Notes: generated by a model from the sequence alone, not told the origin. A stretch of DNA of 64,000 nucleotides from an uncultured Nitrospiraceae bacterium (GCA_964586075.1 CAZPGZ010000001.1:149099-213098), one strand, 5' to 3'. Positions 9,726 to 44,467 are shown, counted from the stretch's first letter. A program made the numbers and translations.

Positions 9726-9733
9726 ACGGTCGT

Positions 9734-11590
9734 TTATTTAATCAGTCCGAGCTTTATTTCTTCGTCGCTTGTAGTAACATTTTCCGTAGCAGACGGGTAC
9801 CGCTCGAGTTCAGGAAGCGGTGCCTCCTGCTCTTTGCTGGTCTTGAATCTGCCGATTGCTTCTGTCAGGCGCGTGGTCAGGTCTGCCAGCTTGCTGATCG
9901 TCGTCACCGTGTCCTGCACGCCCTGGGTGGTTTCCTGTGTCAGTTTCGAAATACTGTCCATCGTATGCACAACGCCTTCTGTTGATTTCACCTGGTCTCC
10001 GGCGGCCCTGGTGATGTCCGTCATGAGACTTGCGGTCTGCTTCACGATTTGTTCGATTTCACGCAGCGCGGCGCCGGCCTGGTCGGCGAGCTTGGTTCCT
10101 TCCTCCACTTCCCGCGTGCCTTCCTCCATGACCGCCACAGCTTCGCTTGTTTCAACCTGAATGCCTTTAATGAGGCCGGTAATATCTTTCGTTGAGCGGG
10201 CAGCCCGTTCAGCCAGTTTTCGCACTTCGTCCGCAACGACGGCAAAGCCCCTGCCCTGCTCACCGGCGCGGGCGGCTTCGATTGCGGCATTCAATGCAAG
10301 CAGGTTCGTCTGTGTAGCGATTTCGCTGATCACCTCGATAATGGCGCCGATTTCGAGCGATCGCTCGCCCAGTCCCTTGATTTTCTTTCCGGTGGATTGC
10401 ACAGTGGCCCGGATACGCTGCATACCTTTGATCGTTTCCGCCACGGCCGTTCCGCCCTTGACCGCCGCCTGGGTCGCCTTCACTGATGTCTGCGTGGCCG
10501 CTTCGGCGTTCTCGGCCATGTGCTGGGTAGTAAGCGACATGGCGTTGACCGCCTCTGCCGCGTTTCTGATCTGGGCAGTCTGCTGTGAAGCGCCGGACCG
10601 CATGCGTTCGGATGACTGCAAAATTTCCGAGGTAGAGCGCTGCACCTCGACCGCCACGGTACTGGCCTGCGTGATCAGCGACGTAAGACCGGTGATCATG
10701 AGGTTGAACGCGTCGGCAACCGATCCGAGTGCGTCGGCGGTAACTTCTGCTTTCGCGGTAAGGTCGCCTTCCGCGGCCGTACTCACGACTGAAAGAAGTC
10801 CGATGACCTGGCTCTGCATCTTATCGCGGTCGGTCTCTGACTGAACAAGGCCCTGCAGGCGTTCGATGGTCTGGTTCAGGGTGATTGCCAGCTGCCCGAG
10901 TTCATCGCCGGTGTCAACGACGGCCTTGTTTGAAAGATCTCCGCGCCCCACGGCTTCCGCCACCCGGATAAGCTCCTTGGTCGGCGCGACAGTGCGTGAC
11001 GACATGTACAGACTGAGAATGGTCAAAACGATCAGCGATACTGCGCCAAGTCCCATGATATTCAGAAGAATGGACCTGATATGATAATTGATTGCCGTCA
11101 TGTTCAGACCTATATGCACCGTGCCGAGGGTTCCTCCGGATATCGGCGTGGCGATATCGATTACGCTGAGCGGGTTTCCTTTTAGAACAATGTCTGCCGG
11201 CTGCGTTCCATACGCGACGCCGGGCATCAGTTTGTTTATCTGCTGGAGATCTGCGGGGACGGCGTTCCCTTCAAAGGAGGACGAGAGCACCCGCCCTCTG
11301 GCGTCACGAATAAAGGAGTAGGCCACTTCCGGCTGCGACGCAGCTTCGTTTCTGAACATCTGAAGCGCGTTGATGTCCTCAACCTGCATCGCCTCCACAA
11401 CCTTTGAACTCAGACCATCGGCCATGATGATGGTTCTATTGATCACATCATCCCGCTGGGAAGCCTGTATCTGGTTGTATATGTAAAAGAGGATGAAACC
11501 ACCAAAAACGACTGAGAGGAAAACAATATGGGCCACTATTTTGGCTCGGATGCTCCACCCATAAAAAGGATTCAGCGTTTTCTTGTTCAT
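9734..11590 (-). CDS. Methyl-accepting chemotaxis protein with two transmembrane helices, a periplasmic sensor, HAMP and an MCP signalling domain
   Basis: 618 aa. It contains the conserved MCP signalling core (...[40 protein letters not shown]...). Confidence 0.9.
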
Positions 11591-11675
11591 AAAATTACTC
11601 CTTCGTAGCGTTCTGGTTTCGTGAATTCGGTGGCTTTGCGTTAGCCGTGCGATTCGTTGTCGGAATGCTGACGGT

Positions 11676-12170
11676 TCAAGTCAGTTTTATCTCTTCTATA
11701 AGGCGCTCGATATTCAAAACTGCGGCCAAACCGGTCTCTCGCTGTAAAATTCCTCTAAAAAAACGGCTGCGGCTTTTGCTGGCTTTCGCGCCATAATCAG
11801 CCGGAATGGCCAGCACACTGCTTACGGGAACCGAAATAACTTCGGAGACATTATCAACAACAATGCCCAGCGTAATGGTGCCCTGTTTTATAATGGCAAT
11901 CTGGTTCGTGGTCGCGGGATTTTGTGTGAGCGAAAGTGTTTCTCGTATATCAACAATGGGAACAATGTTTCCACGAAGGTTAATAACGCCGAGCACATGA
12001 GGCGGGGTGGTCGGGACAGGAAAAATATTCTGAGGAATGATGATTTCCGTCAGCAATTCGACCGGTATGGCATACGTGTCCTCGCCAATAGTGAAGAGGC
12101 AAACTCGAATTTCCTCTTCCGGTTGTGTACTGTTTACCTCGACGGTGACGTCGCTGTCAGTCTCGGCCAA
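11676..12170 (-). CDS. cheW: Chemotaxis coupling protein CheW
   Basis: 164 aa CheW-like domain. Confidence 0.8.
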
Positions 12171-12192
12171 ACGGGCCCCCTTTTTTAGGGAT

Positions 12193-12552
12193 TTAGATAT
12201 ACTTTTTAACTGCCTTCAGCAGATCCTCGGGCTTGAACGGCTTGGTCAAATACTCATCCGCACCCTGCTTCATTCCCCAGAATTTATCGCTTTCCTGGTC
12301 TTTGGAGGTTACCATGATAACAGGTATTTTTTTGTATTGGTCATTGCTCTTGATGTCTCTGCAGACCTGAAAACCATTTTTTTTAGGCATGATGACATCT
12401 AAAATGATCAAGTCGATTTTTTCCGATTTGATCTTCTCCTCTGCCGCTTCTCCATCGAGAACGGTTATGATCGAATGGCCCGTAGGTTGAAGGGTTTGCT
12501 GGAGGATTTGAAGCTCAGCCACGCTATCATCCGCAATGAGTATTTTGGCCAT
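12193..12552 (-). CDS. cheY: Single-domain response regulator (CheY-like)
   Basis: 119 aa receiver only (KILIADDS...DLIILDVIMP...MVTSK). Confidence 0.85.
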   Translation of the reverse strand: MAKILIADDSVAELQILQQTLQPTGHSIITVLDGEAAEEKIKSEKIDLIILDVIMPKKNGFQVCRDIKSNDQYKKIPVIMVTSKDQESDKFWGMKQGADEYLTKPFKPEDLLKAVKKYI

Positions 12553-12683
12553 GCCAGTCTCCTTTTTCTCCTGATTACAGGTTACTAAAAATTAACACAT
12601 TTCTTTGGTTCTGTCAAGTTTTCGTTTTATTCGGCACGTGATCGGTGAAGAAAAACAGGGGATTATCGTGCCGGCAAAAAAGT

Positions 12684-13983
12684 TCAGCGCCGTTTCCTGA
12701 TAAGATTGACCGAAAGCAGGATAAACAGGCTTTTGGCCACATCAAACTCGCTCAAATCAGCCTGGTCAATAATTTTCTGGACGGTTTTCCGCCCGTCGAC
12801 CAGGGAAAAAACTTTCATATCGATATCGCTCATGCCGCGGGTCGTAAGTTCTTCTGCATCGCCGATTATCGGTTCAAACACAATGTTGAAATCCGGCATT
12901 TTTTGCTGGATCAGGCTCCATTCATCCGCCCGCCGGGCGCCTTCCAGAAGCAAATCGTCCACTTTCAGTTGCACGTGGTTGGTAAACACCGGCGGTGCAA
13001 CTTTTTCAAAGAAAAAAGCGCCTTGCTTCCAGGTCATGACCCGGTAGACTGCGGCCTCGGTATAGCGTTTCAGGGCCTCGCAAAAAGCCGCGGCACCAAG
13101 CAGTTTCTCCTGGATAAGAATGCTGTCAAGAGACTGCTGCGTCATTTTTGCAATACGCAAAACATGCTGCAGGCTGTCCTCTTCAAGCCTGCACGCTTTC
13201 CTGAGAAACCCTTCCATGGCGACACTGTCACTGCCGTTGCTGTTGGGTGACGCAAAAACAACCTGTCCGTCTTTAAAGCAAATCGCGACGCTGCTGCCCG
13301 GTTTGTTGACGACTAATTTTCCGGTCTGGCGCTGCAGCCCGAGCATCTGTATCACTTCCACGATCGGCACGCTTGCAAGATTCCCCTGGATGCCGGTGCT
13401 GCCGCCGCCCGGCCGCACCTTCGCCAGCTCCTGCTGTATTTTCTGCGGAAGCGTGTTCTTTACGAAGTCGTCGAGCAGTTGTTCGACGATATTTTTCACC
13501 ATGGATTCAATAACGCCTTGCGCAGCCTGCACACCCGGACCCGGGGCCGGTGCGGGCCGCCCGCCCGGTTCTCTAACCGGAGGCGGGGCCGCAGGCTGCA
13601 CCGCCGGCTTGCTCTTGTCGATTACTTCCCGAATTTTGGCAAGAAGCTCTTCGGGCTGAAACGGCTTGGTAAAATATTCGGTAATGCCGAGAACATCGAC
13701 GAATTTGCTGCCGACCTTGTCGCCCTTGGACGTTACCAGGATAATAGGCGTGTCTTTGAACTCCGGGTCTTCTTTCAGGATCTTGCAAACCTGGAATCCG
13801 TTCATCTTCGGCATGACAAAGTCAACAAGAATCACGGCGGGACGTTCGGACCGGGCTTTCGCAATGCCTTCATCGCCGTCGGACGCCAGAACGACCTGAT
13901 AGCCTTGCGTCGTCAGAATCATCTCGATCAGTCGTTGGACTGTCGGACTATCATCTATGTCAAGTATTTTTTCCCCTGCCATG
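12684..13983 (-). CDS. Response regulator with an N-terminal receiver, a Pro/Ala-rich linker and a C-terminal DUF4388 (PATAN-like) domain
   Basis: REC domain (KILDIDDSPTV...DFVMP). The signature GNLASVPIVEVIQMLGLQRQTGKLVV...ICFKDGQVVFA matches the DUF4388 consensus (GxL..L.DLLQ.L....TG.L). The ATG at 13983 follows a GGGGG RBS. The track start at 14009 adds 9 aa. Confidence 0.75.
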
Positions 13984-14149
13984 TATGCCCCCGAAGTGCA
14001 GCTTCCCAAATTTTAGAATATTAGCATGATAAAAAAGTCATTGTCAACTGCTTATATATGCATTTGGAAGAAGCCCGCTGCGCTTATTCGTTGCGTCACG
14101 GAACGCAGCAGTATGCGGCAGAGAGATCAGGTGAATACAGCCACCGGAA

Positions 14150-15202
14150 CTATTGTTGCCGGGACGCTTCTATAATGCCGCCACCCAGTACGATATCGTC
14201 TGTATAAAAAACCGCTGCCTGGCCGGGGCAGACTCCCGTCGCCGCGTCCTGCAACTCCACCAGGACATCATTCGGTCCTTGGGGTGCTATCACGGCGGGA
14301 ACGGATCGCGAACGATACCGTATTTTAACGGAAACGTTCATGCCGGTGCGGAGGGTGGTAAACGGAATGAAATGCGCGTTTGACACGACCATTCTCCGGG
14401 TTCGCAGTTCCGACAACGTTCCGAGCACCACCCGCCGTGAGGATGGTTCGATTCTGACTACGTACATTCGTTCTCCGGCAGCGTACCCCAGCTTTCTCCG
14501 CTGTCCGACGGTGAAGAAGGCGATGCCCGTATGACGGCCGATGATTTTTCCATCGCTTAAAACCAAATCGCCCGCCTGAAGCGTTTCGGGTGCATGCTTT
14601 TTTAAAAAACCCCGGTAGTCATTTCCCGGCACAAAGCATATTTCCTGGCTTTCCGGACGTTCTGCAGCCGGAAGGCCGAGCTCGTGCGCGATTGAACGCA
14701 CATCCTCTTTCCGCATCCCGCCGAGAGGAAAGAGAATGTTCGGCAGCTGCGCCTGGGAAAGACGATACAAAAAATAGCTTTGGTCCTTCCCGGAATCAAC
14801 ACCTTTCTTAAGCTGAAACAACGGCTCCTGCGGCACCGGTTCTATTTGCGCATAATGCCCCGTAGCGAGAAAGTCGAACGACTGCGATCGCGCATATTCC
14901 AGGAGCAGGTGAAATTTTATCATTTCGTTGCACCGGATGCAGGGGTTCGGTGTGCGGCCCTGCTGATATTCCAAAATAAAATTTCGTATGATACCGTCTG
15001 TAAATTCCGCCTGTGCATCAAGCATGCCGTGGGGAATTCCCAGGTGCTCGCAAACAGCCTGGGCCGAGCCGATATCGCAGCATTGCCCCGGGGTCAATTT
15101 CAGGGTCACGCCTTTGACCTCAAAACCCTGCCTGAGCAGCACTGCGGCGGCAACCGAACTGTCGACGCCGCCGCTCATCGCAATCAGTACGCGTTTGTTC
15201 AT
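14150..15202 (-). CDS. mnmA: tRNA-specific 2-thiouridylase MnmA
   Basis: 350 aa with a PP-loop (SGGVDSSV) and conserved catalytic cysteines. Confidence 0.9.
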   Translation of the reverse strand: MNKRVLIAMSGGVDSSVAAAVLLRQGFEVKGVTLKLTPGQCCDIGSAQAVCEHLGIPHGMLDAQAEFTDGIIRNFILEYQQGRTPNPCIRCNEMIKFHLLLEYARSQSFDFLATGHYAQIEPVPQEPLFQLKKGVDSGKDQSYFLYRLSQAQLPNILFPLGGMRKEDVRSIAHELGLPAAERPESQEICFVPGNDYRGFLKKHAPETLQAGDLVLSDGKIIGRHTGIAFFTVGQRRKLGYAAGERMYVVRIEPSSRRVVLGTLSELRTRRMVVSNAHFIPFTTLRTGMNVSVKIRYRSRSVPAVIAPQGPNDVLVELQDAATGVCPGQAAVFYTDDIVLGGGIIEASRQQ

Positions 15203-24688: not shown

Positions 24689-24962
24689 AATAGGCCCTCC
24701 CTGTAAACGCTGAAGACTTGCAGCACGGTGTTAAACTGACGGAAGATTATACCCTTGTTTTCATATTGCAATCAAGTTCTTGTTTTGTACAAGTGCTGTT
24801 TTGTTCTTTGAAAACAGTCTGAATCCGAAGAAAAAATTCTTGCCCCCTTCGCGAAAGTATAGTAACCTCACTCCATTGGGAGGAACTTCAGCTCAGAGGT
24901 TTTCCCATCTCACCTTGCATCCTCCTGACGATTAAATAGAACAACAGTTGAGGAAAAATATT

Positions 24963-25790
24963 ATGATTACGAACATGCCAAGGACTCTTTCGGCTGGTTT
25001 GTTATTCGCGGCACTCGCCATGGTTCTTTGCATACCCGTGGCCGGGGCGCAGGCGGGAGGGGCAAAAGCAATGACCATTTATCAGATGACCTGGGAAGGC
25101 GATAACGTCGAAGGGGAGCTTTATATCAATGATTTTTTCATCAACAACTTCAGCGGCGCGCAAGCCTTCGGCGGCCTGCCCCTGAACCCCTATCTCGTGG
25201 GAGAAAACGAAGTGCGGGCCGAAGTGCGCAAAAAAAACACTACAAAGCCGGCGCAGCTGACGATCAATGTGTCCGCGATGACCCAGGGAGAGATCGCTGC
25301 GAGCAACCAGCCCGGAAGCGTGACCTCGCTTGAAATTAAAGACGCTGAATTAAAACCCGCCACTACGGTCAAGGCCGTCAAAAAATTCAGCGCTCCCCTG
25401 GATTTCAGCAGCCATCTGCGCCCGACCGGAACTGCCAGCGGGAAAGAAGCGACTGAATACACCAAAATGATTTACGAGCTTTTCAGGGCGAAGAAGATCG
25501 AGGCTCTCATGAAGGAATTAGAGGTCAAGATCAGCGACTACGCAGCCGCCTACCCGGGGCATGATTTTGCAACGGAATTCCGGTCCGTTCTCACCGATAT
25601 GCTTCGGGGAAAACTCGCGCCGATCGATCTCAATCAACTGAGGGCCAGAAAAGCCGGCCCCGGCGGCAAAGTGTGGCAGATCCTCGAAGGGAAAAAAGAA
25701 TTGATCCGCATAATCGCCCCCGACGGTTCCGAAAGCGACATGGCCGTCTACGTTGGTGTGATCGATAGGAAACTGAAGGTCGTACGGTAG
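24963..25790 (+). CDS. Secreted hypothetical protein
   Basis: Signal peptide (LLFAALAMVLCIPVAGAQA) with a GAGG RBS before the ATG at 24963. Confidence 0.5.
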   Translation: MITNMPRTLSAGLLFAALAMVLCIPVAGAQAGGAKAMTIYQMTWEGDNVEGELYINDFFINNFSGAQAFGGLPLNPYLVGENEVRAEVRKKNTTKPAQLTINVSAMTQGEIAASNQPGSVTSLEIKDAELKPATTVKAVKKFSAPLDFSSHLRPTGTASGKEATEYTKMIYELFRAKKIEALMKELEVKISDYAAAYPGHDFATEFRSVLTDMLRGKLAPIDLNQLRARKAGPGGKVWQILEGKKELIRIIAPDGSESDMAVYVGVIDRKLKVVR

Positions 25791-25850
25791 CCAAGGACAA
25801 TTTTCTGCATGCACGAGGACTTAAAAGGACACTTAGGACACAACGTCCCC

Positions 25851-27788
25851 AAAGATTCCCCTCGGCTGAAATAACGTTCTCTGTGTTTACTCTACTTTTT
25901 ATTTATAGACGTAAAATAAGGGCTGAGAGGATTATCCCTACCAAATAATAGATGTTTATAGGTATTACTAGAACACTCTATGCTGCCACAATTCAAATTT
26001 TCTAAATAGGCCTTTTCATGTAACTGCAGCATTCTTAATGATGTTTCAATGCTTAACCGCACGCTAATCTTATCACTTAATCTAATCAAAGCATTCATAA
26101 GAATATCGAAATATGTATGGAGGTTTTCAACAAGTGTATTTAAATACGGCAAAGCTGAAGCGGAGTGAACTATTTGGTTTCTAGTCGTATAAATTCTTTG
26201 AATATGCCACGCTACCCGTTGACGGTGAGAGGAAATAGTTTCCTTGATTATTTCTGGTTTGTGAAATTTTTCATGACACCAATAGCATCGATTCTTCAAA
26301 AGTGGGTGTTTTTCTAATAAACCGTAAATGTGCAATCTGCAATCTTTCAAATCTGATGAAATGAGAAGACAAATGGATTTATCGAAAAAATTACCTTCCA
26401 CTGGAAGCTCTTCTATATAATTGCGTACAGAATAACCACCATGAAATAGATTTTCGCTTGTATCCTTAAATATTTTTTCAACATACGTTAGTGTAAGTGA
26501 AGGCAATAAATAGTTAAGGTATTGAGTAATTCTTGCCTGTCCATCATCTTCTCTTGGAGGTGGCAAAAAGCCTTCGAGTGCTGCCCATAAACTTACAAGT
26601 TGGTTTTCCGGAGCTACCCCCTCGATTGCTGTCCGGTGATAATCCATTGCCTTTACAAATAAATTTATAGAAGACTCGTCGAATTTACCTTTACCAAGCG
26701 TTTCTATAGTTTCATCAAAGTTTCCAACAAACTTGGCCCTTGTTACTGTGCCACGCTCCATAGGTGCGGGTGGTGATTTAACAACAAAATATTCCTCCTC
26801 ACCATCCCTTTTTACAACACAATTTTGCAACCACGTTGGCTTTCGGTGATGATCATAAAAGCGGTAGATATCGGCAAGCAATTCAATAGATGAGTTTGCT
26901 AATTGACGTGCTATAAACCTGTCTTTTGTTTTGATTTTATCAAATATGATATATTGCGTGTATTGTTCATTTATTCCTAGCAAACCATGCAGGTGTTTCC
27001 TAGATTCTATTTCACTCGGTAACGTATCCAATATTTTAACATCAAGGTTTTCCGCGACCTTTTTAAGTTGACTAAATTCCGCTGATCCTCTAAATATAAT
27101 TTTCCAGGAAATATCCTTTCCTTCAAAAATATCTAAAAATGCTTTTATCTGAGAATGCGAATTTATTTTCCTGGGTAGTGCGGTCCAATTAAAAAAATAA
27201 TTAAGCGTCATAAAGTACAGAAATTGTTTGCTATAACCTCGTAGTTCAATTTCAGCGGTTAAAGCTACTGCCAGTTCTGTGAGCTTTTTTTTCTCATTCG
27301 GATACGCTACGGTCTGCTCAATCTTTCTTCTTAACAAGTACCAATACTTATCTGCAATTTCCGTAAGGAGTGCTCTAGTCGTTGCTCTCAAATCCTCCGG
27401 ATTTTTTGTAAGTTCTTTGAGGTTTTTCAAATATTGCGTACTCAGTTCGGGCATATCTTCTTTAATGATAGGATCGTTCTTAAATCGATTTTCAAGTTCC
27501 TCTACAACTGGATTAAGAGCAGCGGGCTTGACTCGCCCTTTAATTAATTCTGATGCCAGCAAATTTAGCTCTAGAATATTTGTGTGCGTATTCAATGCGG
27601 GAGCCTTGAAAGAGTCAATCGTGTGATGAAATAATAATTCCTCTAATATCTGCGCAAAAAATAGCAAACCCATAGAAGCATCACTCAAATCCCATTTATA
27701 AAGACGCGGCTTAATCATATATGATTTCTCCTTTTTTCAGACCTACTTGGAGATACTGAGGCATTTAAGAAGCGCTTTGGGGACGTTG
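25851..27788. mobile_element. AT-rich cassette of about 1.94 kb bounded by 14-bp perfect inverted repeats (CTTTGGGGACGTTG). No transposase is present.
   Basis: Left copy CAACGTCCCCAAAG at 25851-64. Right copy CTTTGGGGACGTTG at 27775-88, plus an imperfect tandem copy at 27799-813. GC content is visibly much lower than the flanks. Confidence 0.35.
25892..27718 (-). CDS. Large hypothetical protein with a C-terminal HEPN-type Rx4H motif (RNQIVH), proposed here as a candidate abortive-infection or defence RNase
   Basis: 608 aa filling the AT-rich cassette. The motif ...IYTTRNQIVHSASALPYLNTLVENL is HEPN-like (R-x4-H). A CYWCHEKFH Cys/His cluster sits just upstream of it. Confidence 0.55.
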   Translation of the reverse strand: MIKPRLYKWDLSDASMGLLFFAQILEELLFHHTIDSFKAPALNTHTNILELNLLASELIKGRVKPAALNPVVEELENRFKNDPIIKEDMPELSTQYLKNLKELTKNPEDLRATTRALLTEIADKYWYLLRRKIEQTVAYPNEKKKLTELAVALTAEIELRGYSKQFLYFMTLNYFFNWTALPRKINSHSQIKAFLDIFEGKDISWKIIFRGSAEFSQLKKVAENLDVKILDTLPSEIESRKHLHGLLGINEQYTQYIIFDKIKTKDRFIARQLANSSIELLADIYRFYDHHRKPTWLQNCVVKRDGEEEYFVVKSPPAPMERGTVTRAKFVGNFDETIETLGKGKFDESSINLFVKAMDYHRTAIEGVAPENQLVSLWAALEGFLPPPREDDGQARITQYLNYLLPSLTLTYVEKIFKDTSENLFHGGYSVRNYIEELPVEGNFFDKSICLLISSDLKDCRLHIYGLLEKHPLLKNRCYWCHEKFHKPEIIKETISSHRQRVAWHIQRIYTTRNQIVHSASALPYLNTLVENLHTYFDILMNALIRLSDKISVRLSIETSLRMLQLHEKAYLENLNCGSIECSSNTYKHLLFGRDNPLSPYFTSINKK

Positions 27789-27878: not shown

Positions 27879-28142
27879 GTGCCCAGGTATATTTTCTCTC
27901 GAACGGTTTTAGATATGCAGGCGTCACGCGTTCGGCTCTGGGTGGTGCGAAACGATGCGATTTCGAAGGCTATCGTGGAAGGATGGCTTGATTATATGTA
28001 TATGCGGACATCTTGTCAAGGGAGGTGCTGCAAGATGTCCTTTGGGGTCACCCATTTGAAAGCACTCTACCAAGTGAAAAAGCTCCACCTTGAGACGAGA
28101 AAAGAGCCCTCGGGGCGTTTAGGGTCGGACTTGAATCTGTAG
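27879..28142 (+). CDS. Hypothetical 87-aa ORF
   Basis: ORF spanning the junction of the X and Y repeats. It has no recognisable domain. Confidence 0.15.
   Translation: MPRYIFSRTVLDMQASRVRLWVVRNDAISKAIVEGWLDYMYMRTSCQGRCCKMSFGVTHLKALYQVKKLHLETRKEPSGRLGSDLNL
27969..28025. repeat. Repeat X1 (about 57 bp, about 75% identical to X2 at 30390..30446)
   Basis: GCTATCGTGGAAGG...TTGA.TATA...CTGTCAAG.AGG is shared with 30390..30446. Confidence 0.45.
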
Positions 28143-28180
28143 TTATTGACAATCCTGAAGCAACCTACGCTGTGTCCCAC
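28124..28180. repeat. Repeat Y1 (57 bp, one mismatch to Y2)
   Basis: GTCGGACTTGAATCTGTAGTTATTGACAATCCTGAAGCAACCTACGCTGTGTCCCAC. Confidence 0.8.
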
Positions 28181-28255
28181 GAGGCCTCTGGGGTCAAAAT
28201 CTTTATTGCCAGCATCACTGCCATCGGAAAAGCATTGGCCCTCATTACTCCGCTG

Positions 28256-28732
28256 TCAGATACTTTTGAAAACGGTTGTAATGTACGGATTAAACCCCAT
28301 CTTCCGCCAGAATGCCGTGGAAGTCTCATTGGCCACGACGACGCGAAGTTCTATCCGGTGAACGCCATGGCCCACAAACCATGTCTGTACCGCGCGGAAT
28401 AGGCTCTCGCCGATGCCGTTTCTCCGGCACCTCTCGGTCACGGCAAGATCGCACACCATTCCATACTCCTGGTTCTCGAACACCGGCGGATGCTTGGCCA
28501 ATGCCGCCAAGCAGTAACCAACGGCTTCTCCATCCTGCTCGGCGACCAGAACACACGAGGTCTCTGACATCATGTGACCGGAGATAAACTCCTTGAACCG
28601 CTCATGGCCGTCGGCTGCGCGGGTAAAATGGGGATCGCGCTTCTTATGGAAATCAACGAACTCTTTCCAGAGCTCCTCGATAGCCGGTAGATCGGCACTC
28701 ATTGCTTTCCTTATTAATGTATGACTTTTCAT
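28256..28732 (-). CDS. GNAT-family N-acetyltransferase
   Basis: 158 aa acetyl-CoA-binding fold (...RRNGIGESLFRAV...). Confidence 0.85.
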   Translation of the reverse strand: MKSHTLIRKAMSADLPAIEELWKEFVDFHKKRDPHFTRAADGHERFKEFISGHMMSETSCVLVAEQDGEAVGYCLAALAKHPPVFENQEYGMVCDLAVTERCRRNGIGESLFRAVQTWFVGHGVHRIELRVVVANETSTAFWRKMGFNPYITTVFKSI

Positions 28733-28756
28733 TCATCGTCCTTGAGGGTGTATAAA

Positions 28757-28813
28757 GTCAGACTTGAATCTGTAGTTATTGACAATCCTGAAGCAACCTA
28801 CGCTGTGTCCCAC
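28757..28813. repeat. Repeat Y2 (57 bp direct repeat of Y1)
   Basis: Identical to Y1 except for one base. It also causes the duplicated MTILKQPTLCPT shadow ORFs. Confidence 0.8.
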
Positions 28814-29379: not shown

Positions 29380-30339
29380 CTATTTGCTGTTCTTCACAGC
29401 GCGAACAGCTGCCTGCTTCAGATCATCACTGGAGCTCGTGCGGATGATTTCGTTCGCGCCGGCCACAGAGAGGGCTGAGTTCACCAGAACATTGTACAGT
29501 ATCTCTGACGGATTCAGCTCGACCCGCTTGATTGTTCCTTTTTGCTGGCCCTCGTTTGCTTTTATCTTTGCGATGACATCGCTCCCACCCAGAGGATATC
29601 CGACGGCAAATACCGTCATCTGGCCGGAAGCCATCGGTGTTCTCGTTTTCAAGGTCGAATGCTCTTCTCCTTTGGCAAGCACTTTTTCCCCGGCCTTGAT
29701 GGCAATGGTCACAAAATAGCCTTCTGATAATGCTTCGTTAAACCTGTTATACCTTGTCTCACTTTCCACGGACATGTCCGGTTCGCGGGTCAGCTGTTTT
29801 TGAACAACGGGGTCCAGCAGTCCGAGACGGACGCGCGCAATCCTGCCGACTACGTCCTGCGTTCGGGAAATCTGACCAAGCAGCTCAGGATTGCTCAGCC
29901 GTGCGGCAGCGATGCAGCGCACTTCTATTAACGCGTCATTCCGGACAGCCTGCTGAATGGTTTGTTGATCTCTGATCTCGCGGAAGGCAACGAGGCGGAT
30001 GAGAGGATTTTCACTTTTGAACAATTCCGACAGCTGTTGTTCCGCGGCTGTCCTGACGCGGGCGTCCTTGTCTTGCCGGCTTAACCGGCCCAGGTCTCCA
30101 CCTGATGTATTCAGTCTTTTGACGATGTCATTTTTGTCCCAGAAACTCAGAGACCGTATCCAATAGCGCTCACCCAGAGAGCGGATACTTTCGGCCTCTT
30201 TCCTGATTCCCTTCAGCCGATCATCAGGATCATCGCTTTGCATAAGCGGCACCGAGGAGCAGGCTTGAGCCATTACCAGAAGCATGATAATAAACAGCGG
30301 GAAAAATGTTCGGAATCGCGCGGTCAGGTCTTGTGTCAT
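29380..30339 (-). CDS. Hypothetical lipoprotein, helical-repeat (HEAT-like) region
   Basis: Lipobox (MAQACSS) and repetitive alpha-helical content. Confidence 0.55.
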   Translation of the reverse strand: MTQDLTARFRTFFPLFIIMLLVMAQACSSVPLMQSDDPDDRLKGIRKEAESIRSLGERYWIRSLSFWDKNDIVKRLNTSGGDLGRLSRQDKDARVRTAAEQQLSELFKSENPLIRLVAFREIRDQQTIQQAVRNDALIEVRCIAAARLSNPELLGQISRTQDVVGRIARVRLGLLDPVVQKQLTREPDMSVESETRYNRFNEALSEGYFVTIAIKAGEKVLAKGEEHSTLKTRTPMASGQMTVFAVGYPLGGSDVIAKIKANEGQQKGTIKRVELNPSEILYNVLVNSALSVAGANEIIRTSSSDDLKQAAVRAVKNSK

Positions 30340-30389
30340 GGCAATATCCTCTTTTGGCGCTGGGGTAAATATTTTTTTTGAGAATGGGA

Positions 30390-30446
30390 GCTATCGTGGA
30401 AGGCTGATTTGAGTATAGGGATAAGTCGACACCCTGTCAAGAAGGA
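30390..30446. repeat. Repeat X2 (partner of X1)
   Basis: See X1. Confidence 0.45.
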
Positions 30447-30793
30447 AGGATTTTCGGCAAAGTGTCATGAATCTTCAGATCCGCTTATTTTCCTCGAGCA
30501 CATAAAAGTTCCTTAGCCGAAGGCCAAGGGTGCGAGAGACCTAGAATAAAACCCATGCGAAAATATAGGCGGACGACCGAGGACGAGGGTTAAACATTTC
30601 GGACTGTTTGAGCCCAAAGGGGGAGTTTCCGAAATGTACCGAGGACGACCGAGTCAGCCGTAAAGGATTTTCGCCGGGCGCCCTTCTGAGGAGGACCTTC
30701 AATCTGAGCCGAAGGCTCCTGATAAAGCGACCTCCCCGCGACTAACCCGGCCCCGGCCAAATCCGGAATCATATGTCGCAGGGGATTGGCTTA

Positions 30794-30903
30794 CCTTTCT
30801 TGGAGCGAGCAAGAAAGGTGACAAAAAGAAATCATTATGTTATTACTGTTGATTATGCAACCGCCACGCATCATTCAGAATTTATTTGTGATCAAAAGCT
30901 GTC
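30794..30903. repeat. Repeat Z1: a degenerate copy of the 3' end of the NUDIX gene, including the CCTTTCTTG...CAAGAAAGG hairpin
   Basis: It aligns to 32374..32463. The coding fragment is decayed (FDHK*ILNDAWRLHNQQ*). Confidence 0.65.
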
Positions 30904-30918
30904 ATAGAAGCGATTTGC

Positions 30919-32103
30919 TCAGAAGAGATCGAGGACTGTCTGGGCCGCCTGTGATGAGAGGCTGAGCGAGGTGGTGCCGAGCGATTCCCGGGTCTGGAGC
31001 ATCAACATGTTGGCCCCTTCCTGGTTCATGTCGGCAAGGGTAAGCTCGTCAACCCCGACCTGCAGGCTGTTGACCATGCTGGTCGTGAAATCCTCGCGCG
31101 TCGTAACAATGCTCAGATTGGAAGAGAGGCTTGCAGAGTAGTTCTGGAGGGTGGTCACGGCGGAATTCAGCTCGTTTATCGAGGCCTGTATGCCGCCGGA
31201 AGCGAGCCAGGAGTTGCTGCCGGGCGTGGTTACGGTTATGGAGTTCGGCGCGCCGGTTGTGTGGTTGAAACCGCTCGCGTCGTACTGAATCGAGACCGCG
31301 TCGCCGATGTTGAACGTGCCGGACACCACCAGGGCCCAATAGTCTCCACCAATGGAAGGCGGCTGATAACCACTGGCATCCACGGAATCGCCGGTTGCTA
31401 TTGCTCCTGTCACGGAATCGACAATTCTGTAATTGAACGGATTCGCGTTCATGAGATTTCCCAGCGCGGCCGTTACCGTGCCGGCGCCGAGCTTGACAAT
31501 GTGATAGGTAGAGTCATAACTTGACACTGTCGCCGTCTGGAGAGTTGTGACCGTGCTCGTGACGATCTGCGTGCTGCTTGCCGTGTTCGCCGCGTGCAGG
31601 CCGAGCCCGGTGCTCGAGCCGTCGAACCCGTTGATCTGAAGCGAATTCCCGCTCGTGCTGTCGAAGATGACGGTCAGATTCTGGGACGCGAGAAAGTCGG
31701 TGCCGGAATAGCCAGAGTCGCGGGACATCTGCGTGATCTGGCCCAAAATTGTGTCAAACTGCGCGGCGTAAGAGTTGATCGCAGTCGTGTCGGACGTGGC
31801 AAGCGCGGACTGGGCCAGGCCTTTTGCGGCATCGATCAGCCTGGTAATGCCGGAGATGCCGTCGTTCGCGGCCTGAATGGTGCTGACCGCGTTCGACATA
31901 GAGTCTTTCAGACCCGTCAGATTGGAGGCACGCATATTGAGCGTCTGGGCCGCGAAAAAGCTGGTGGGATTATCAAGGGCGGTGTTCACTTTTTTCCCGG
32001 TGGCAAGACGCTCCTGTGTCCTGTTCAGGAGACTTGACGTCTTCTGCAGGCTGATGAGATTCGACCTCATTCCCGTTGTCAGCGATATGTCATTGATGCC
32101 CAT
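30919..32103 (-). CDS. fliC: Flagellin (divergent FliC-like)
   Basis: Conserved flagellin N-terminal domain (...LATGKKVNTALDNPTSFFAAQ...ANDGIS) and C-terminal domain (...ANMLMLQTRESLGTTSLSLSSQAAQTVLDLF). The ATG at 32103 follows a GAGG. Confidence 0.85.
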   Translation of the reverse strand: MGINDISLTTGMRSNLISLQKTSSLLNRTQERLATGKKVNTALDNPTSFFAAQTLNMRASNLTGLKDSMSNAVSTIQAANDGISGITRLIDAAKGLAQSALATSDTTAINSYAAQFDTILGQITQMSRDSGYSGTDFLASQNLTVIFDSTSGNSLQINGFDGSSTGLGLHAANTASSTQIVTSTVTTLQTATVSSYDSTYHIVKLGAGTVTAALGNLMNANPFNYRIVDSVTGAIATGDSVDASGYQPPSIGGDYWALVVSGTFNIGDAVSIQYDASGFNHTTGAPNSITVTTPGSNSWLASGGIQASINELNSAVTTLQNYSASLSSNLSIVTTREDFTTSMVNSLQVGVDELTLADMNQEGANMLMLQTRESLGTTSLSLSSQAAQTVLDLF

Positions 32104-32223
32104 TTCCCTGGCCTCGACCTCTTGGCAGAACAATCACGCCCGATTTCTAATATCGTTGCGACCTTTCGCGTAACTAATTTAAAAAAAGCACACGAATCCC
32201 GTGTTTTGCTCTTGCTGCTATGC

Positions 32224-32250
32224 TTATCGGCAGATTGGTTGATTACTTTA
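32224..32250 (-). promoter_or_regulatory. Sigma-28 (FliA) consensus promoter upstream of the flagellin gene
   Basis: On the minus strand the sequence reads TAAA, 15 nt, GCCGATAA. This is an exact match to the sigma-28 consensus. Confidence 0.55.
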
Positions 32251-32373
32251 GGGTGATTGAGGGCGGATGGCGACGATGAGAAGTCTGAAGGGTCAACTTA
32301 AAGAGGGTGTTTTATTTTGTGTTTTTTGCCGCTATCATCGTGTTTCGTTTATTTTTTACTGCACCTTTCTTGT

Positions 32374-32463
32374 TTGCCCGAAGAAAGGTGACAAAATCCT
32401 GTTACCGTTGATTATGCAACCGCCACGCGTCATTCAGAATTTTCTTATGATCAAACGCTATCT
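32374..32463. repeat. Repeat Z2: the native 3' end of the NUDIX gene plus its downstream hairpin
   Basis: Partner of Z1. Confidence 0.65.
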
Positions 32464-32824
32464 CGGCATGCTGCCAGTCAACAACCAGCTCCGCTGCGCT
32501 CGCGTCATCGCCCGCCTTGAGAGAGGAGATGTCAGCTTCGCCGAGAAAGGCCACGGAGACAGTGTGCCTGCGGGGGTCTCTCGCAGGGTCGGAATAGACG
32601 CCAATAAGCCGCAGGTCTTTGACGATGAGGCCGGTTTCCTCGCGCGTCTCGCGACGGCACGCATCCTCAACGGTCTCCCCAACTTCCACAAAACCGCCGG
32701 GCAGCGCGTACCACCCCTTGAACGGATCGTACGCCCGCCGAATAAGAACAACTGCACCGTTGTGAAACACGACGCAGTCAACTGTCAGAAAAGGTCGTTC
32801 GTTCATAGATAGCCATGGACACAA
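32402..32824 (-). CDS. NUDIX hydrolase
   Basis: Nudix box GGFVEVGETVEDACRRETREETG. Confidence 0.85.
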   Translation of the reverse strand: MCPWLSMNERPFLTVDCVVFHNGAVVLIRRAYDPFKGWYALPGGFVEVGETVEDACRRETREETGLIVKDLRLIGVYSDPARDPRRHTVSVAFLGEADISSLKAGDDASAAELVVDWQHAEIAFDHKKILNDAWRLHNQR

Positions 32825-36388: not shown

Positions 36389-37033
36389 TTACTTTTTTGC
36401 CGTGACAACAAATAAGGCGCTTTTCCTTCCGACTTCAGGGTGAATATTTTGAAGTGCAGTGCTTTCCCCTATTTTCATTCCACGCAGCTCGCTTTCTAAT
36501 TCATCGGACGAAAAAAAATGAAAGAGTTTGCCTGTTCCGTCATCATACGTATTCGTTTCTATTTCCTTCCATTCGTGTCTCGGATATGATTCGTCCTCCA
36601 GTGACAGCACGCTCATAAACAAGCAGCCATCTTGCTTCAGCACCCGTTTTGCCTGCGTGAGCACCGCTCCTCGTTCTTTTTCGGTCAAACAGTGGAGTGA
36701 ATTCAGCATGACCACCAGGTCAAATGAATCATTCGGCATGCTCTTCGGAATGGAATCGTGCCTGATAAAGCTGCATTTCCCTCCGGGATTTTCATTTTTA
36801 TACGACTTTGCCTTTTCGATTGCTTTGACGGAAATGTCGATTCCGGTGACGTCAAAACCTTCTTTGGTCATAAGAACGGAATAGGCGCCGTCACCGCAAC
36901 CGAAATCCAGTATTGTTTTAACCGGAACTCTATGGAGAAATTGTTGAAGCATGCTCCAGAGGGGTTCATAAATCGGCGTGGACTTGCTTTCTTCGTAGTC
37001 TTTGTCCCATGGATTTACACTATTCGCTGCCAT
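36389..37033 (-). CDS. Class I SAM-dependent methyltransferase
   Basis: Motif I ILDFGCGDG. Confidence 0.8.
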   Translation of the reverse strand: MAANSVNPWDKDYEESKSTPIYEPLWSMLQQFLHRVPVKTILDFGCGDGAYSVLMTKEGFDVTGIDISVKAIEKAKSYKNENPGGKCSFIRHDSIPKSMPNDSFDLVVMLNSLHCLTEKERGAVLTQAKRVLKQDGCLFMSVLSLEDESYPRHEWKEIETNTYDDGTGKLFHFFSSDELESELRGMKIGESTALQNIHPEVGRKSALFVVTAKK

Positions 37034-37136
37034 ATTTCTGCCTTCTTTATCCGGCTGTCAATACTTTTTCAAGAAAAAAAGTACCACCATTGCTATCTGC
37101 CTGCGGTATTGACGAGGTCCTGGCACAGTCTTCCCG

Positions 37137-37715
37137 CTATTTCAGCTTGTTTAAATAATCGGCAAGCCCCACGCGGTCATCGCGCTTATCGCGCATTTCA
37201 TTGACGATTTTTTTTACCCATACATCACCGGTTCCTGCATTCAGAACAATCTTTCTCCCCTGCTTTCCGCCCGTGTCCTCTGCTACCAGTTTCAATTTGT
37301 ATTTATCGATGAGTATGTGCGCCATTTCGATATTTTGCTTCCCTATGGACTTTGTGGGATAGGCCACCTTGAGCACATCAGCGCCGCCGAAAATTTTCAC
37401 ATCCAGCTCGTGCGGCGCGACGCCCAGAGATTGGATTGTATCGATCAGCGTTTCGGTGGAACCGGCCACATACTTGAGAGGGTTGTCTTCAGTCGCGGCA
37501 TTGCACTTTACCGGGCAGTTGTCAACACAGCAGTGATGTGTTTTTTCCATGGGAAGCTGCGCGTGAGACAACGCGGCAAGACGGCGTCGTTTGCTGTATA
37601 AAACAAAAGACAGGCACGAACCCAGAATCGTGGTTATGATAAGCGGTTTGTCGGTAATGTACGCTTCTCCGGGCATGAGCGTTACATCAGCCTTGTTTTC
37701 CAGGTCATGTCTCAT
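37137..37715 (-). CDS. cheD: Chemoreceptor glutamine deamidase CheD (orphan, far from the che operon)
   Basis: ILGSC...KIFGGA...EDTGGKQGRKI are CheD hallmarks. There is a Cys-rich insertion (HCCVDNCPVKC). Confidence 0.8.
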   Translation of the reverse strand: MRHDLENKADVTLMPGEAYITDKPLIITTILGSCLSFVLYSKRRRLAALSHAQLPMEKTHHCCVDNCPVKCNAATEDNPLKYVAGSTETLIDTIQSLGVAPHELDVKIFGGADVLKVAYPTKSIGKQNIEMAHILIDKYKLKLVAEDTGGKQGRKIVLNAGTGDVWVKKIVNEMRDKRDDRVGLADYLNKLK

Positions 37716-40999: not shown

Positions 41000-41186
41000 G
41001 GTTTGGAGAATGGCTTCTCTAAAAGTGCGAATAGATTTTATAAAGTCTCGATGCAATCGAAAGAACAGAAAAATACCCCCACTGCACTCACCAACTGCAT
41101 AAAACTATCCAAAAATAAAAAAGAGCCAGCAGAATCTGCCGGCTCTTTGATTTCAATGGTGGGCGCTACTGGGATTGAAGCAGTGG
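41000..41186. repeat. Direct repeat R1, a copy of the tRNA-Val 3' end (last 30 nt, one mismatch) plus its terminator hairpin and about 120 bp of degenerate flank. It is att-like.
   Basis: 41117..41186 is nearly identical to 44353..44422. The upstream roughly 120 bp are recognisably homologous (ggtttggagaatgg...aaagtgcgaa). Confidence 0.75.
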
Positions 41187-41281: not shown

Positions 41282-41893
41282 ATGAATATCAAAGAACGTC
41301 GCCTTCTACATAAGAAGCTCTTCCGAGAAGAAATACTTGCTGCAGCGAGGGAATTATTTGCGCAGGAAGGATACCGTGGCTTCTCTATGCGTAAACTGGC
41401 TACTATGATTGAGCATTCCCCCACGGCCATTTATCTCTACTTTCATGATAAAGATGACCTGCTATACAATATTTGCGAAGATCTCTATTTGTCGTTTCTC
41501 AACAAGATCATTGAAATTCGCGAATCCGAACCAAATCCACGAGAAGCACTTCGATTAGTTCTCCACGAATATATTGTTTCCGGTTTGTCTAAACCAGATC
41601 ATTACAAAGTGGTTTTTTTTAGCAACCCGACAGTATATGGTACGCCGGATGATTTTATGAAAAAAGACACAATGGGCCGGCGCGTATATCTTTGTTTTCG
41701 AGAATTAGTAGCCGAATGCATGCAGCGAGGCATTCTGATCGGGAGTGATCCAGAGGTGCTTACCCAGGTATTCTGGTCTGCTGTACATGGTCTGGTTACG
41801 GCTATTATTTTTACCAAAGACTTTCCCCTCTCGAACACCAATATCCTAGCAGAGACAATGGTAGATGGCCTCTTAACAGGTCATGGAGCATAA
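41282..41893 (+). CDS. TetR/AcrR-family transcriptional regulator
   Basis: N-terminal HTH (ILAAARELFAQEGYRGFSMRKLATMIEHSPTAIYLYF). Confidence 0.85.
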   Translation: MNIKERRLLHKKLFREEILAAARELFAQEGYRGFSMRKLATMIEHSPTAIYLYFHDKDDLLYNICEDLYLSFLNKIIEIRESEPNPREALRLVLHEYIVSGLSKPDHYKVVFFSNPTVYGTPDDFMKKDTMGRRVYLCFRELVAECMQRGILIGSDPEVLTQVFWSAVHGLVTAIIFTKDFPLSNTNILAETMVDGLLTGHGA

Positions 41894-41944: not shown

Positions 41945-44086
41945 ATGGGTAAGAAAAAGAGACATTTATATGTCATTGCTGGCGGAAAATCAGGCAGTCA
42001 AATCAGCAGCGAAAAGTTCAACTTTATTCCCTGCGCCGCGGTGCTTGAGGAAGCATCCACTCTATTGTCCTCACTCCAGAAAGAAGACGGTCACTGGGTA
42101 TTCGAACTAGAAGCAGATGTAACAATTCCTGCAGAATATGTCATGCTGCAACGTTTTCTCGGGCGTCCGATAAATGATGATATACGGGAGCGGTTGACAT
42201 TATATTTACTTGATAGACAGTTACCGGACGGAGGTTGGCCGCTCTATGCCGTTGATGGTAATGCCGACCTGAGCGCATCGGTAAAAGCATACTTTGCTCT
42301 CAAAATTCTTGGTCATAATAAAAACGAGTCTTGCATGATTAAAGCTCGGCAGGTGATTTTGGCTCTTGGAGGGGCTGAATGTAGCAATGTTTTTACCAGA
42401 ATCGCGTTGGCAATTTTTGGACAAGTTCCGTGGCACACACCACCAGTCATGCCGGTGGAAATAATTCTGCTTCCCCGTTGGTTTTTTTTTCATCTCGGCA
42501 AAGTCGCCTACTGGTCGCGTACTGTAATAGCTCCTCTTTTAATCCTCTATGCACAAAAACCAATTTGCAGCCTACGCCCAGAAGAATGCATAACTGAACT
42601 CTTTATAGCTCGCCCGGAAACTCTTTTTAATATAGACAGATTTCGACCGCGAGCATGGCGAAAAAATTTTTTCATAGCTTTCGACCGGATACTAAAAGAC
42701 TCCGTTCACCTTATCCCTGCATTTATAAATAGAAGAGCGCAGAAAAAAGCCGAGCTCTGGACGCGCGAACGCATGCAGGGCGAGGGCGGTATCGGGGCAA
42801 TATTTCCCGCGATGGCTTATGCTGTCATGGCACTGAAAGTTCTAGGATGCAAAAATGACGATGCGGACTTTATGCGCGGAATAACGGCAATCGATGATTT
42901 GCTAATGCATCGAATACCGAATAAAAACGGCCCTTCTGACAACGGAATCCTAGGATATTGTTTAAGTCGATCATCCGCAGCACCAGAAATATTTCCCCGC
43001 AATAACGCTGCAACTTCGCGCAGTGAAGCAGTAACACTTTGCCAACCCTGCTCCTCGCCTGTTTGGGATACCTGTATGAGTCTTACCGCCTTGATGGAGT
43101 CTGGTTTCGCCCAAAAGTCATTTTCAGAAGATAAAACCATGCGATGGCTTTTCGACCGGCAGATTACTGCTCCCGGTGACTGGGCGACATATTCTCCCAG
43201 ACTTGAAGGTGGTGGTTGGGCCTTTCAATATGAAAATACCCGTTATCCTGATCTGGATGATACCTCAAAAGTATTGATGAGCCTTTTTCGAGCCAATGCC
43301 CTAAAGCATGAACAATATCAAGACAAGATCAATCGTGCAGTTATGTGGGTGATCGGCATGCAAAACTCTGATGGAGGTTGGGGCGCCTTTGATAAAGACA
43401 ACAACCGTCTGTATTTAAACGACATCCCATTTGCCGACCATGGGGCGCTTCTTGATCCGAGCACCTCAGATGTGACTGGCAGGTGTATCGAGATGCTGGG
43501 GATGTTAGGATACGGTAAAGCTTTTTCTCCCATTGCACGCGGAATCAACTTTCTGCGCAACAACCAGGAAAAATTCGGTGGTTGGTTTGGTCGCTGGGGA
43601 GTGAATTATATATACGGAACGTGGTCTGTACTATCGGGGCTTAAGCAGGCCGGTGAGGATATGCGGCAATCTTACGTTAAAAAGGCAGTTACATGGCTCA
43701 TGCATCATCAGAATCAGGATGGCGGATGGGGAGAAAGCTGTGCAAGTTACGACAATCCATCGTTGGCAGGCATGGGTGCAAGCACGGCGTCTCAAACCGC
43801 ATGGGCATTATTGGCACTTATGGCAGCGGGTGAGGTTGATAGTTCTTCTGTGCAACGAGGTGTAGAATATCTCGTAAAACATTTCACTCCTCATGTCGGT
43901 TGGGAAGAACCATATTTTACAGGCACAGGATTTCCACGAGTGTTTTATCTGCGCTACCACGGCTACAGTCTTTATTTTCCTATTTGGGCTTTAGGGGTAT
44001 ATCATCGCAAAAAAAATGGTTTAGATACCGTGCAGGAAAGTGTCCAAGGCAAGGGAAGCAGCGTAAAAATGAGCATCGGTTGTTGA
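41945..44086 (+). CDS. shc: Squalene-hopene cyclase
   Basis: 713 aa with multiple QW motifs and a catalytic DxDDT motif (DLDDTS). There is long collinear similarity to characterised SHC (WLFDRQITAPGDWA...). Confidence 0.9.
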   Translation: MGKKKRHLYVIAGGKSGSQISSEKFNFIPCAAVLEEASTLLSSLQKEDGHWVFELEADVTIPAEYVMLQRFLGRPINDDIRERLTLYLLDRQLPDGGWPLYAVDGNADLSASVKAYFALKILGHNKNESCMIKARQVILALGGAECSNVFTRIALAIFGQVPWHTPPVMPVEIILLPRWFFFHLGKVAYWSRTVIAPLLILYAQKPICSLRPEECITELFIARPETLFNIDRFRPRAWRKNFFIAFDRILKDSVHLIPAFINRRAQKKAELWTRERMQGEGGIGAIFPAMAYAVMALKVLGCKNDDADFMRGITAIDDLLMHRIPNKNGPSDNGILGYCLSRSSAAPEIFPRNNAATSRSEAVTLCQPCSSPVWDTCMSLTALMESGFAQKSFSEDKTMRWLFDRQITAPGDWATYSPRLEGGGWAFQYENTRYPDLDDTSKVLMSLFRANALKHEQYQDKINRAVMWVIGMQNSDGGWGAFDKDNNRLYLNDIPFADHGALLDPSTSDVTGRCIEMLGMLGYGKAFSPIARGINFLRNNQEKFGGWFGRWGVNYIYGTWSVLSGLKQAGEDMRQSYVKKAVTWLMHHQNQDGGWGESCASYDNPSLAGMGASTASQTAWALLALMAAGEVDSSSVQRGVEYLVKHFTPHVGWEEPYFTGTGFPRVFYLRYHGYSLYFPIWALGVYHRKKNGLDTVQESVQGKGSSVKMSIGC

Positions 44087-44217: not shown

Positions 44218-44422
44218 TGAAGATTGGAGAACGGTATTTCCGAAAGTGCGAACAGCTTGTGCAAATTCTCGGTGCTATGCACAAACGATAAAACCGAAAA
44301 ACAGGAAGGTTGCTCTTTCTTATTAACTGTACAAAAACTGACACACGAAATAAAAAAAGAGCCAGCAGAATCTGCCGGCTCTTTGATTTCAATGGTGGGC
44401 GCTACTGGGATTGAACCAGTGG
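44218..44422. repeat. Direct repeat R2, comprising the native tRNA-Val 3' end, its terminator and a degenerate flank
   Basis: Partner of R1. Confidence 0.75.
44356..44392 (-). terminator. Rho-independent terminator of tRNA-Val
   Basis: On the minus strand it reads AGAGCCGGCAG-att-CTGCTGGCTCT followed by TTTTTT. Confidence 0.6.
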
Positions 44423-44467
44423 CCCCTGCCGTGTGAAGGCAGTGCTCTCCCGCTGAGCTAAGCGCCC
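44393..44467 (-). tRNA. tRNA-Val (anticodon CAC)
   Basis: 75 nt: GGGCGCTTAGCTCAGCGGGAGAGCACTGCCTTCACACGGCAGGGGCCACTGGTTCAATCCCAGTAGCGCCCACCA. It folds as a cloverleaf by manual inspection, with CAC at positions 34-36 of the anticodon loop TTCACAC. Confidence 0.85.

Follow-up and report, generated by a model that had tools for sequence, protein, structure and literature searches.

A flagellin gene with a sigma-28-type promoter beside a NUDIX gene in an uncultured Nitrospirota bacterium, flanked by the scar of a probable old local duplication

Several described bacterial systems come close to the locus reported here, a flagellin gene lying next to a NUDIX hydrolase gene in DNA from an uncultured Nitrospiraceae bacterium (GCA_964586075.1, CAZPGZ010000001.1:149099-213098), which was analysed as one stretch of 64,000 nucleotides (nt), hereafter the window. 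With the class III flagellin genes (fliC/hag), read by sigma-28 (FliA/SigD), it shares an exact TAAA-N15-GCCGATAA promoter motif, monocistronic organization, conserved D0/D1 helices and a leader with a stem-loop; unlike them, it belongs to an uncultured Nitrospirota host, and its protein is nearest to short Caulobacter/Geobacter-type flagellins and carries in addition a central domain of ~115 amino acids (aa). The 3' end of the NUDIX gene recurs in decayed form beyond the flagellin gene, which therefore stands between two direct repeats, Z2 at the NUDIX gene and Z1 downstream of the flagellin (Table 1). These repeats are like the tandem-duplication remnants of bacteria in their same-orientation junction, the decaying partial gene copy and the occurrence of several nested examples in one region, whereas here the second gene copy is gone with no vestige found. 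They are like the attachment-site (att) duplications of integrative islets, as seen at tRNA genes, in consisting of the 3' end of an adjacent gene plus a hairpin and in leaving the target gene intact, but neither an integrase nor an empty site was found here, the repeat is several times as long as typical att cores, and its boundary is variable. The enterobacterial flagellin replacement loci (fljB, flk/fll/flm) likewise hold a flagellin gene away from the other flagellar genes, but those loci show presence/absence polymorphism and carry mobility or inversion genes, whereas every relative sampled carries the locus of the window, which shows no such polymorphism and no such genes. Literature searches yielded nothing specific to this locus, which is made up of known kinds, a sigma-28-driven flagellin gene and a segmental-duplication scar.

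The open reading frame (ORF) of 394 aa is the flagellin gene of an uncultured Nitrospirota bacterium and is predicted to be transcribed alone. For comparison we used the window, which is identical to L001, and two related lineages, L009 (~96% nt identity) and L002 (90-94% nt identity), the latter a metagenome-assembled genome (MAG) entered as "MAG: Nitrospirota bacterium" (chromosome OY760142.1, 3.25 Mb); the Logan contig L010 is the same sequence as L009. The promoter motif lies 121 nt upstream of the flagellin ATG and is the sole exact occurrence of its consensus in 64 kb, with 0.02 expected by chance, which bears out the exact FliA consensus that a first-pass annotation, made from the sequence alone, had placed here. 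The exact motif stands at the same position in L002, L009 and L010; its TAAA and GCCGATAA elements are invariant in L002 and L009, and the spacer has two substitutions in L002. Over the 167 nt that begin shortly before the promoter, run through a leader of ~110 nt and end at the ATG, the window and L002 are identical at 162 nt (97%) despite a synonymous divergence (dS) of 0.19 in the flagellin gene, as would be expected if promoter and leader were functional. Transcription of the gene would be expected to depend on FliA. The stem-loop of the leader and its U-run, which are fully conserved in L002 and L009, could act as a 5' stabiliser or attenuator. For the Nitrospirota, the locus provides a clean example of a sigma-28-type flagellin promoter with a conserved leader.

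Three side observations concern promoters and leaders. The leader stem-loop ACACGGGATTCGTGT with its U7 (32181-32204, minus strand) is terminator-like and lies ~12-35 nt past the predicted start site. L005, a different organism sampled together with L002, has a flagellin gene (7434-8585) with TAAA-N15-TCCGATAA 149 nt upstream (7259-7285); this gene adjoins flbT/flaF plus two further flagellin genes, indicating that sigma-28-like promoters and several adjacent flagellin genes occur in this flagellin family. Additionally, a TGAA-N15-GCCGAAAA motif that precedes the lipoprotein gene and matches at 10 of the 12 positions was considered as a relic second flagellin promoter; it was rejected, since local alignment of its region with the real promoter region scored no better than that of shuffled sequences.

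Within the 394-aa ORF, Pfam Flagellin_N (PF00669) matched residues 17-141 at 43.7 bits (cut-off 26.6), while the Flagellin_C model (PF00700) was covered in full, yet at 18.1 bits, under its cut-off of 23. Both terminal regions (residues 1-192 and 306-394) align to Caulobacter FljK-N, and residues 1-192 align to FljN, with residues 306-394 matching the FljN C-terminus at an i-Evalue of 2.7e-5. An AlphaFold model built with 19 homologues (mean predicted local distance difference test score, pLDDT, 74.8) has long terminal helices, including a single one at residues 302-393, and a beta-rich middle domain; the 46 top-scoring Foldseek matches of this model in the PDB were all flagellin chains, most of them from solved filaments (E-values down to 1e-9, probability 1.00). 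More than 4,000 flagellin homologues were found, the full-length ones reaching 59% identity; in the terminal regions, identity to 270-aa flagellins is 58-67%, and some of these flagellins are named as Nitrospirota or Geobacter-type. Between the window and L002 the ratio of nonsynonymous to synonymous divergence (dN/dS) is ~0.1, indicative of purifying selection, with no sign of diversifying selection, and the guanine-plus-cytosine (GC) composition of the gene is ordinary, with no anomaly or foreign signal. To judge from alignment and predicted fold, this is an ordinary and not an aberrant flagellin; its earlier description as "divergent" was overstated, since each of its helical ends can be aligned with flagellins of solved structure and the model folds as a flagellin does.

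The repeats that surround this gene derive from the NUDIX gene. Z2 is the intact, in-frame NUDIX 3' end with its hairpin, a description in the first-pass annotation with which the coordinates and the Pfam NUDIX match agree; Z1 had been called a decayed copy of it downstream of the flagellin, and the translation FDHK*ILNDAWRLHNQQ* agrees with that as well. Z1 begins 10-12 nt past the flagellin stop codon and is joined there to NUDIX sequence at about codon 117, so that the two repeats bracket exactly one promoter-plus-gene unit. They are ~80% identical overall (104-116 nt) and 89% identical over 61 nt (30843-30903 / 32402-32462), and have in common an exact 16-nt block (30811-30826 / 32381-32396) and an exactly matching 22-mer (0 expected by chance); the hairpin arms CCTTTCTT...AAGAAAGG occur in the window only at 30794-30818 and 32364-32388. 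The similarity is not confined to the hairpin, the outcome that would have marked it as a generic terminator family, but runs into the NUDIX coding sequence, with 55-63 nt of Z1 aligning codon for codon with the NUDIX C-terminus in all three genomes. Over the 63-nt coding-derived part, Z1 and Z2 agree at 54 of 63 positions, Z2 of the window and of L002 at 55 of 63, and Z2 and the outgroup L020 at 53 of 63. Since Z1 is as close to Z2 as orthologues are to each other, it comes from the NUDIX gene of its own lineage or of a very close relative, with an age of about that of the split or older.

Comparison of the relatives extended the duplication and dated it. The order NUDIX - flagellin - 319-aa gene - 160-aa gene is common to the window, L009 and L002. 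Relative to L002, the window has a dS of 0.19 in the flagellin, 0.40 in the NUDIX gene and 0.27 in the 319-aa gene (range among relatives 0.1-0.4). The presence of both copies in all three lineages means that the duplication predates their divergence, and an assembly artefact was rejected, as the same arrangement appears in short-read, long-read and Logan assemblies. The window sequence past the Z1 hairpin (~30790 to 30626) has its counterpart past the hairpin of the L002 NUDIX gene (88% identity across 224 nt, with 23 nt more), and the two copies in L002 match each other out to L002 9786 / 11427. The ancestral duplicated unit thus measured at least 330 nt and comprised the NUDIX gene from ~codon 117 with its stop, the hairpin with a 12-bp stem, and an element, here called E, of ~270 nt whose end lies near CGCATGGG. 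After the event, the lineages differed in which pieces of the two copies they lost. In the NUDIX-proximal copy of the window and L009, E is replaced by ~95 nt of A-rich sequence and the hairpin loop is inverted; the NUDIX-proximal copy of L002 has lost the 3' half of the E stem; and among the distal copies there are two differences, a precise 98-nt indel (window 30688-30785) and, in L002 Z1, ~46 additional nt at the apex of the E stem-loop. Within the window alone the repeat seems to span ~100 nt, and it took a reading of three genomes to reveal the duplication as long, old and one of several local scars.

A GNAT gene 2 kb from the flagellin locus lies between repeats with the same architecture, which come from the upstream 160-aa gene, namely from its 3' end and the flank beyond it. 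The distal GNAT repeat of L002 reproduces 307 nt from the 3' end of that gene (12900-13206 vs 14016-14322, 92%) and is directly followed, at 14336-14434, by a third and more decayed NUDIX 3' fragment (Z3), whereas L009 has lost most of the GNAT gene and kept the duplicate (11272-11510 vs 11735-11968). L009 additionally carries an internal NUDIX fragment (codons 85-106) at 12182-12247 and, at 5832-6162, a called 172-aa ORF in which 155 nt from the NUDIX 5' end are fused to pieces of the ACP_PD gene. Every scar junction links the end of one unit with the interior of an upstream gene that has the same orientation, which is the signature of a tandem-duplication junction.

Taken together, these results suggest that Z1 and Z2 are probably what a local duplicative rearrangement has left behind from long ago, be it a tandem duplication with loss of a copy or the integration of a circle by a single crossover. 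As we infer it, the unit [NUDIX 3' end - hairpin/E - promoter - flagellin] would first have been duplicated in tandem, the junction falling 10-12 nt beyond the flagellin stop, and the second promoter-plus-flagellin copy would then have been deleted; alternatively, a circular copy of this unit, coming from a close relative and integrated by one crossover (Campbell-type), would give the identical product. In either case, separate lineages later lost different parts of both copies. Tandem duplication with copy loss is the most economical origin. We favour a duplicative rearrangement because it explains the neighbouring scars, because the repeat is too long for a transposition-type duplication, and because there is no mobility gene and both composition and selection are ordinary. 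Both pathways place the flagellin gene downstream of NUDIX-E in the source genome already, so that the repeats do not record its arrival; direct repeats around a gene do not prove an insertion. Several observations weigh against this reading, its main weakness being that no vestige of a second flagellin or promoter was detected between E and the lipoprotein promoter, where local alignment stayed at the level of shuffled sequence. Nor did any relative turn up with two flagellins in tandem at this site or, among the relatives inspected, with the state that the first-pass annotation had proposed to look for, a NUDIX gene followed directly by the lipoprotein genes with no flagellin, so that the ancestral state is unobserved. 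Furthermore, NUDIX orthologues at 78-89% aa identity (L011-L018, L019, L020 and L021) all lack a downstream flagellin, as they lack the 319-aa gene, which fits an earlier arrival of the flagellin.

That arrival had been read from the repeats themselves: the first-pass annotation held that the flagellin was inserted, or swapped, as a unit beside the NUDIX gene, and called the arrangement consistent with horizontal replacement of the antigenic filament subunit. The first half of this stands in part, in that the duplication is real, is gene-derived and brackets promoter plus gene, but a tandem duplication with copy loss gives the same structure with no insertion. We consider it unlikely that a promoter-plus-flagellin cassette inserted or swapped horizontally at the NUDIX 3' end made the flanking duplication and replaced the filament subunit. 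The exact bracketing of one unit is what such a cassette would leave, outgroup NUDIX loci have no flagellin, and the closest flagellin homologues (56-59% identity) lie in unrelated gene contexts, so that flagellin genes of this clade do move; however, the arrangement is fixed in all sampled relatives, and the window, L009, L002 and L010 all carry it with both Z copies already diverged, the outcome that the first-pass annotation had named as refuting its reading; the duplication is therefore old and fixed. The length of the duplication is far beyond any target duplication of a transposase or integrase, no integrase or transposase appears among the Pfam annotations of the window, L002 and L009 around the locus, and there are no terminal inverted repeats and no GC shift. 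The low dN/dS, the closeness of Z1 to the lineage's own NUDIX gene and the best-named flagellin homologues, which are Nitrospirota and Geobacter-type, likewise speak against a replacement, and a recent insertion or horizontal replacement of the flagellin is not supported by these comparisons. An older relocation of the flagellin to the NUDIX site is possible, given the outgroup NUDIX genes that lack it downstream. The neighbours of these outgroup NUDIX genes differ in every lineage, and only L019 has the hairpin and E after the gene; together with the flagellin contexts, this indicates that the NUDIX gene is the edge of a fast-changing region and that the flagellin genes of the clade shift position over long timescales. 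An empty site was not found in the close relatives, all of which carry the flagellin, and the distant NUDIX loci have unrelated neighbours. A search of the genome collection with the 319-aa lipoprotein gene returned only the MAG of L002, homologues of the lipoprotein with 45-60% identity sit on contigs that stop short of the upstream gene, and the caspase-like gene, used as a synteny anchor in metagenomes, gave one locus, which was non-syntenic.

A succession of site-specific integrations at the NUDIX 3' end, bringing first the defence genes, then the lipoproteins with GNAT and then the flagellin, with Z3 and Z1 as displaced 3' copies, in the way that islands accrete at tRNA genes, is more doubtful still. 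L002 does have three NUDIX 3' copies in the same orientation whose decay rises with distance (Z2 intact, Z1 ~80%, Z3 ~66-75%), the modules beyond Z3 differ in every genome, and a classic-looking duplication of a tRNA-Val 3' end lies in the same window. No integrase lies in or beside any module, however, and the left ends of the copies vary (~codon 117, codon 104, and the internal fragment of codons 85-106), the repeat extends ~270 nt beyond the gene, and the NUDIX 5' fragment and the duplicate of the 160-aa gene cannot stem from one att site.

A more speculative reading, to which we give little credence, would see the NUDIX 3' end with its covarying 12-bp hairpin and E as a reusable recombination or landing site that captured modules serially (flagellin; lipoproteins with GNAT; defence genes), possibly independently of an integrase, with Z1 and Z3 as module boundaries and E with its 98-nt optional insert as a new structured RNA or DNA element. 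That Z1 and Z2 are alike only through a dispersed hairpin/E repeat, with no NUDIX duplication, is very hard to sustain: copies of the hairpin and E are indeed present in L019 and, in inverted form, in L007, but the window holds no further copies and the codon-for-codon match in three genomes refutes this as a full explanation. Two mobile-element classes were also tried and rejected: a transposon or insertion sequence, given the length of the duplication, the lack of a transposase and the lack of terminal inverted repeats save the two hairpins that match each other, and an integron cassette, given that the unit has its own promoter and that Pfam scans of the long ORFs of the window found no integrase domain.

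Table 1. Positions of the flagellin locus, its repeats and its neighbours, counted from the first letter of the window.
Feature	Position	Strand	Description
Second scar	28113..28813	minus	GNAT gene 28256-28732 between 68-nt direct repeats 28113-28180 / 28746-28813, 93% identical
Putative lipoprotein gene	29380..30339	minus	319 aa; lineage-specific, 6 homologues found; downstream neighbour of flagellin
Sigma-70-like promoter of the 319-aa lipoprotein gene	30412..30440	minus	TTGACA-17-TATACT; outside the duplication
Element E core	30552..30687	minus	AGAAGGGCGCCCGGCGA ... stem ACATTTCGGA/TCCGAAATGT ... CGCATGGG; part of the ancestral duplicated unit
Structured segment	30688..30785	minus	98 nt; precise presence/absence
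Z1	30790..30908	minus	Decayed NUDIX 3' end 30843-30908 with internal stop, plus hairpin 30790-30822
Flagellin gene	30919..32103	minus	394 aa; N-terminal (1-192) and C-terminal (306-394) helical regions around a beta-rich central domain of ~115 aa
Flagellin leader (5' untranslated region)	32104..32216	minus	Stem-loop ACACGGGATTCGTGT and U-run at 32181-32204; GAGG 8 nt before ATG
Sigma-28 (FliA)-type promoter	32224..32250	minus	TAAA-N15-GCCGATAA; full sequence TAAAGTAATCAACCAATCTGCCGATAA
A-rich spacer	32267..32361	minus	~95 nt; window and L009; site where L002 keeps a long copy of element E
Z2	32362..32466	minus	Final ~18 NUDIX codons and stop, then hairpin 32362-32392
NUDIX hydrolase gene	32402..32806	minus	134 aa, intact; Pfam NUDIX 86.5 bits

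The hairpin and E are themselves conserved. Pairing is kept in each of the variants of the hairpin stem (GTCACC/GGTGAC, GTTACC/GGTAAC and GCCACC/GGTGGC), and the E stem ACATTTCGGA/TCCGAAATGT becomes ACATTTCAGA/TCTGAAATGT in L019 and L007 through compensatory changes; such changes in both stems, in three independent lineages only, point to a selected structure. The Z1 hairpin stands where a 3'-end stem-loop of the flagellin mRNA would be, no U-run follows the hairpin in either orientation, and we suggest that it may be a 3'-end or stability element of the NUDIX and flagellin mRNAs. Outside the locus, the hairpin and E were found at L019 8553-8720, 133 nt after the NUDIX orthologue, and at L007 2218-2295, inverted and in another context, and Rfam gave no match at E <= 1 for 30200-32500, which includes the intergenic element and the leader. 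The hairpin with its structured element of ~140-270 nt (window 30552-30822, minus strand), found in distinct Nitrospirota lineages and contexts, is a candidate for an uncharacterised RNA or dispersed repeat, and this structured element and the recurrent scars are the parts of the region that deserve further attention.

Two details of these elements are recorded as side observations. The 98-nt segment is self-complementary. The Z1 copy of the window and the NUDIX-proximal copy of L002 contain it, with ~90% identity between the two, whereas L019 and the Z1 copies of L009 and L002 do not. It has no target duplication, and its distribution does not track strain relatedness. In addition, the loop of the NUDIX-proximal hairpin (32362-32392), CGGGCAAAC in the NUDIX sense, is the reverse complement of the L019 loop type GCTTGCCCG, whereas the Z1 and L002 hairpin loops have the orientation of L019, indicating that the loop flipped between its inverted arms in the lineage of the window and L009.

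Gene content turns over between close relatives in the small chromosomal region bounded by ACP_PD and DUF676. The slots flanking the conserved block from the NUDIX gene to the 160-aa gene differ by genome, one of them holding a caspase-like gene in some genomes and Big_2/trypsin genes in another. The slot between the GNAT and DUF676 genes, which is probably a hotspot for defence or mobile genes, contains in the window (24948-27718) a low-GC (0.34-0.39) 608-aa gene, which has no Pfam domain and only a weak PADLOC match to ApeA (E = 1e-4), and a 280-aa ORF; in L002 it holds Vsr, a UvrD/PD-(D/E)XK helicase-nuclease and a DNA methylase, and in L009 a 781-aa protein. Farther away, the 3' part of tRNA-Val(cac) (44393-44467, minus strand) and its terminator hairpin are duplicated with 97% identity over 75 nt (41113-41186 / 44348-44422) around a TetR gene (41282-41893) and a squalene-hopene cyclase gene (41945-44086). 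In L002 the same tRNA-Val is followed by a different gene, encoding a caspase-ankyrin protein, and the region looks like an att-type islet lacking an integrase.

Pfam scans of the large ORFs of the window detected no other flagellar structural genes, in agreement with the first-pass annotation, which had named the flagellin the sole flagellar gene in the 64 kb. The window does contain a chemotaxis cluster (4913-14009) with a CheA-CheW-receiver hybrid, three CheW, an MCP and response regulators that include the DUF4388 type, and, separate from this cluster, cheD (37137-37715) with a gene for a CheR-like methyltransferase (region 36389-37715). These genes fit a motile organism without proving motility. 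Within the cluster, the gene for a 429-aa response regulator (4913-6202) has internal repeats at 5123-5381 that are 78-82% identical and offset by ~93-100 nt.

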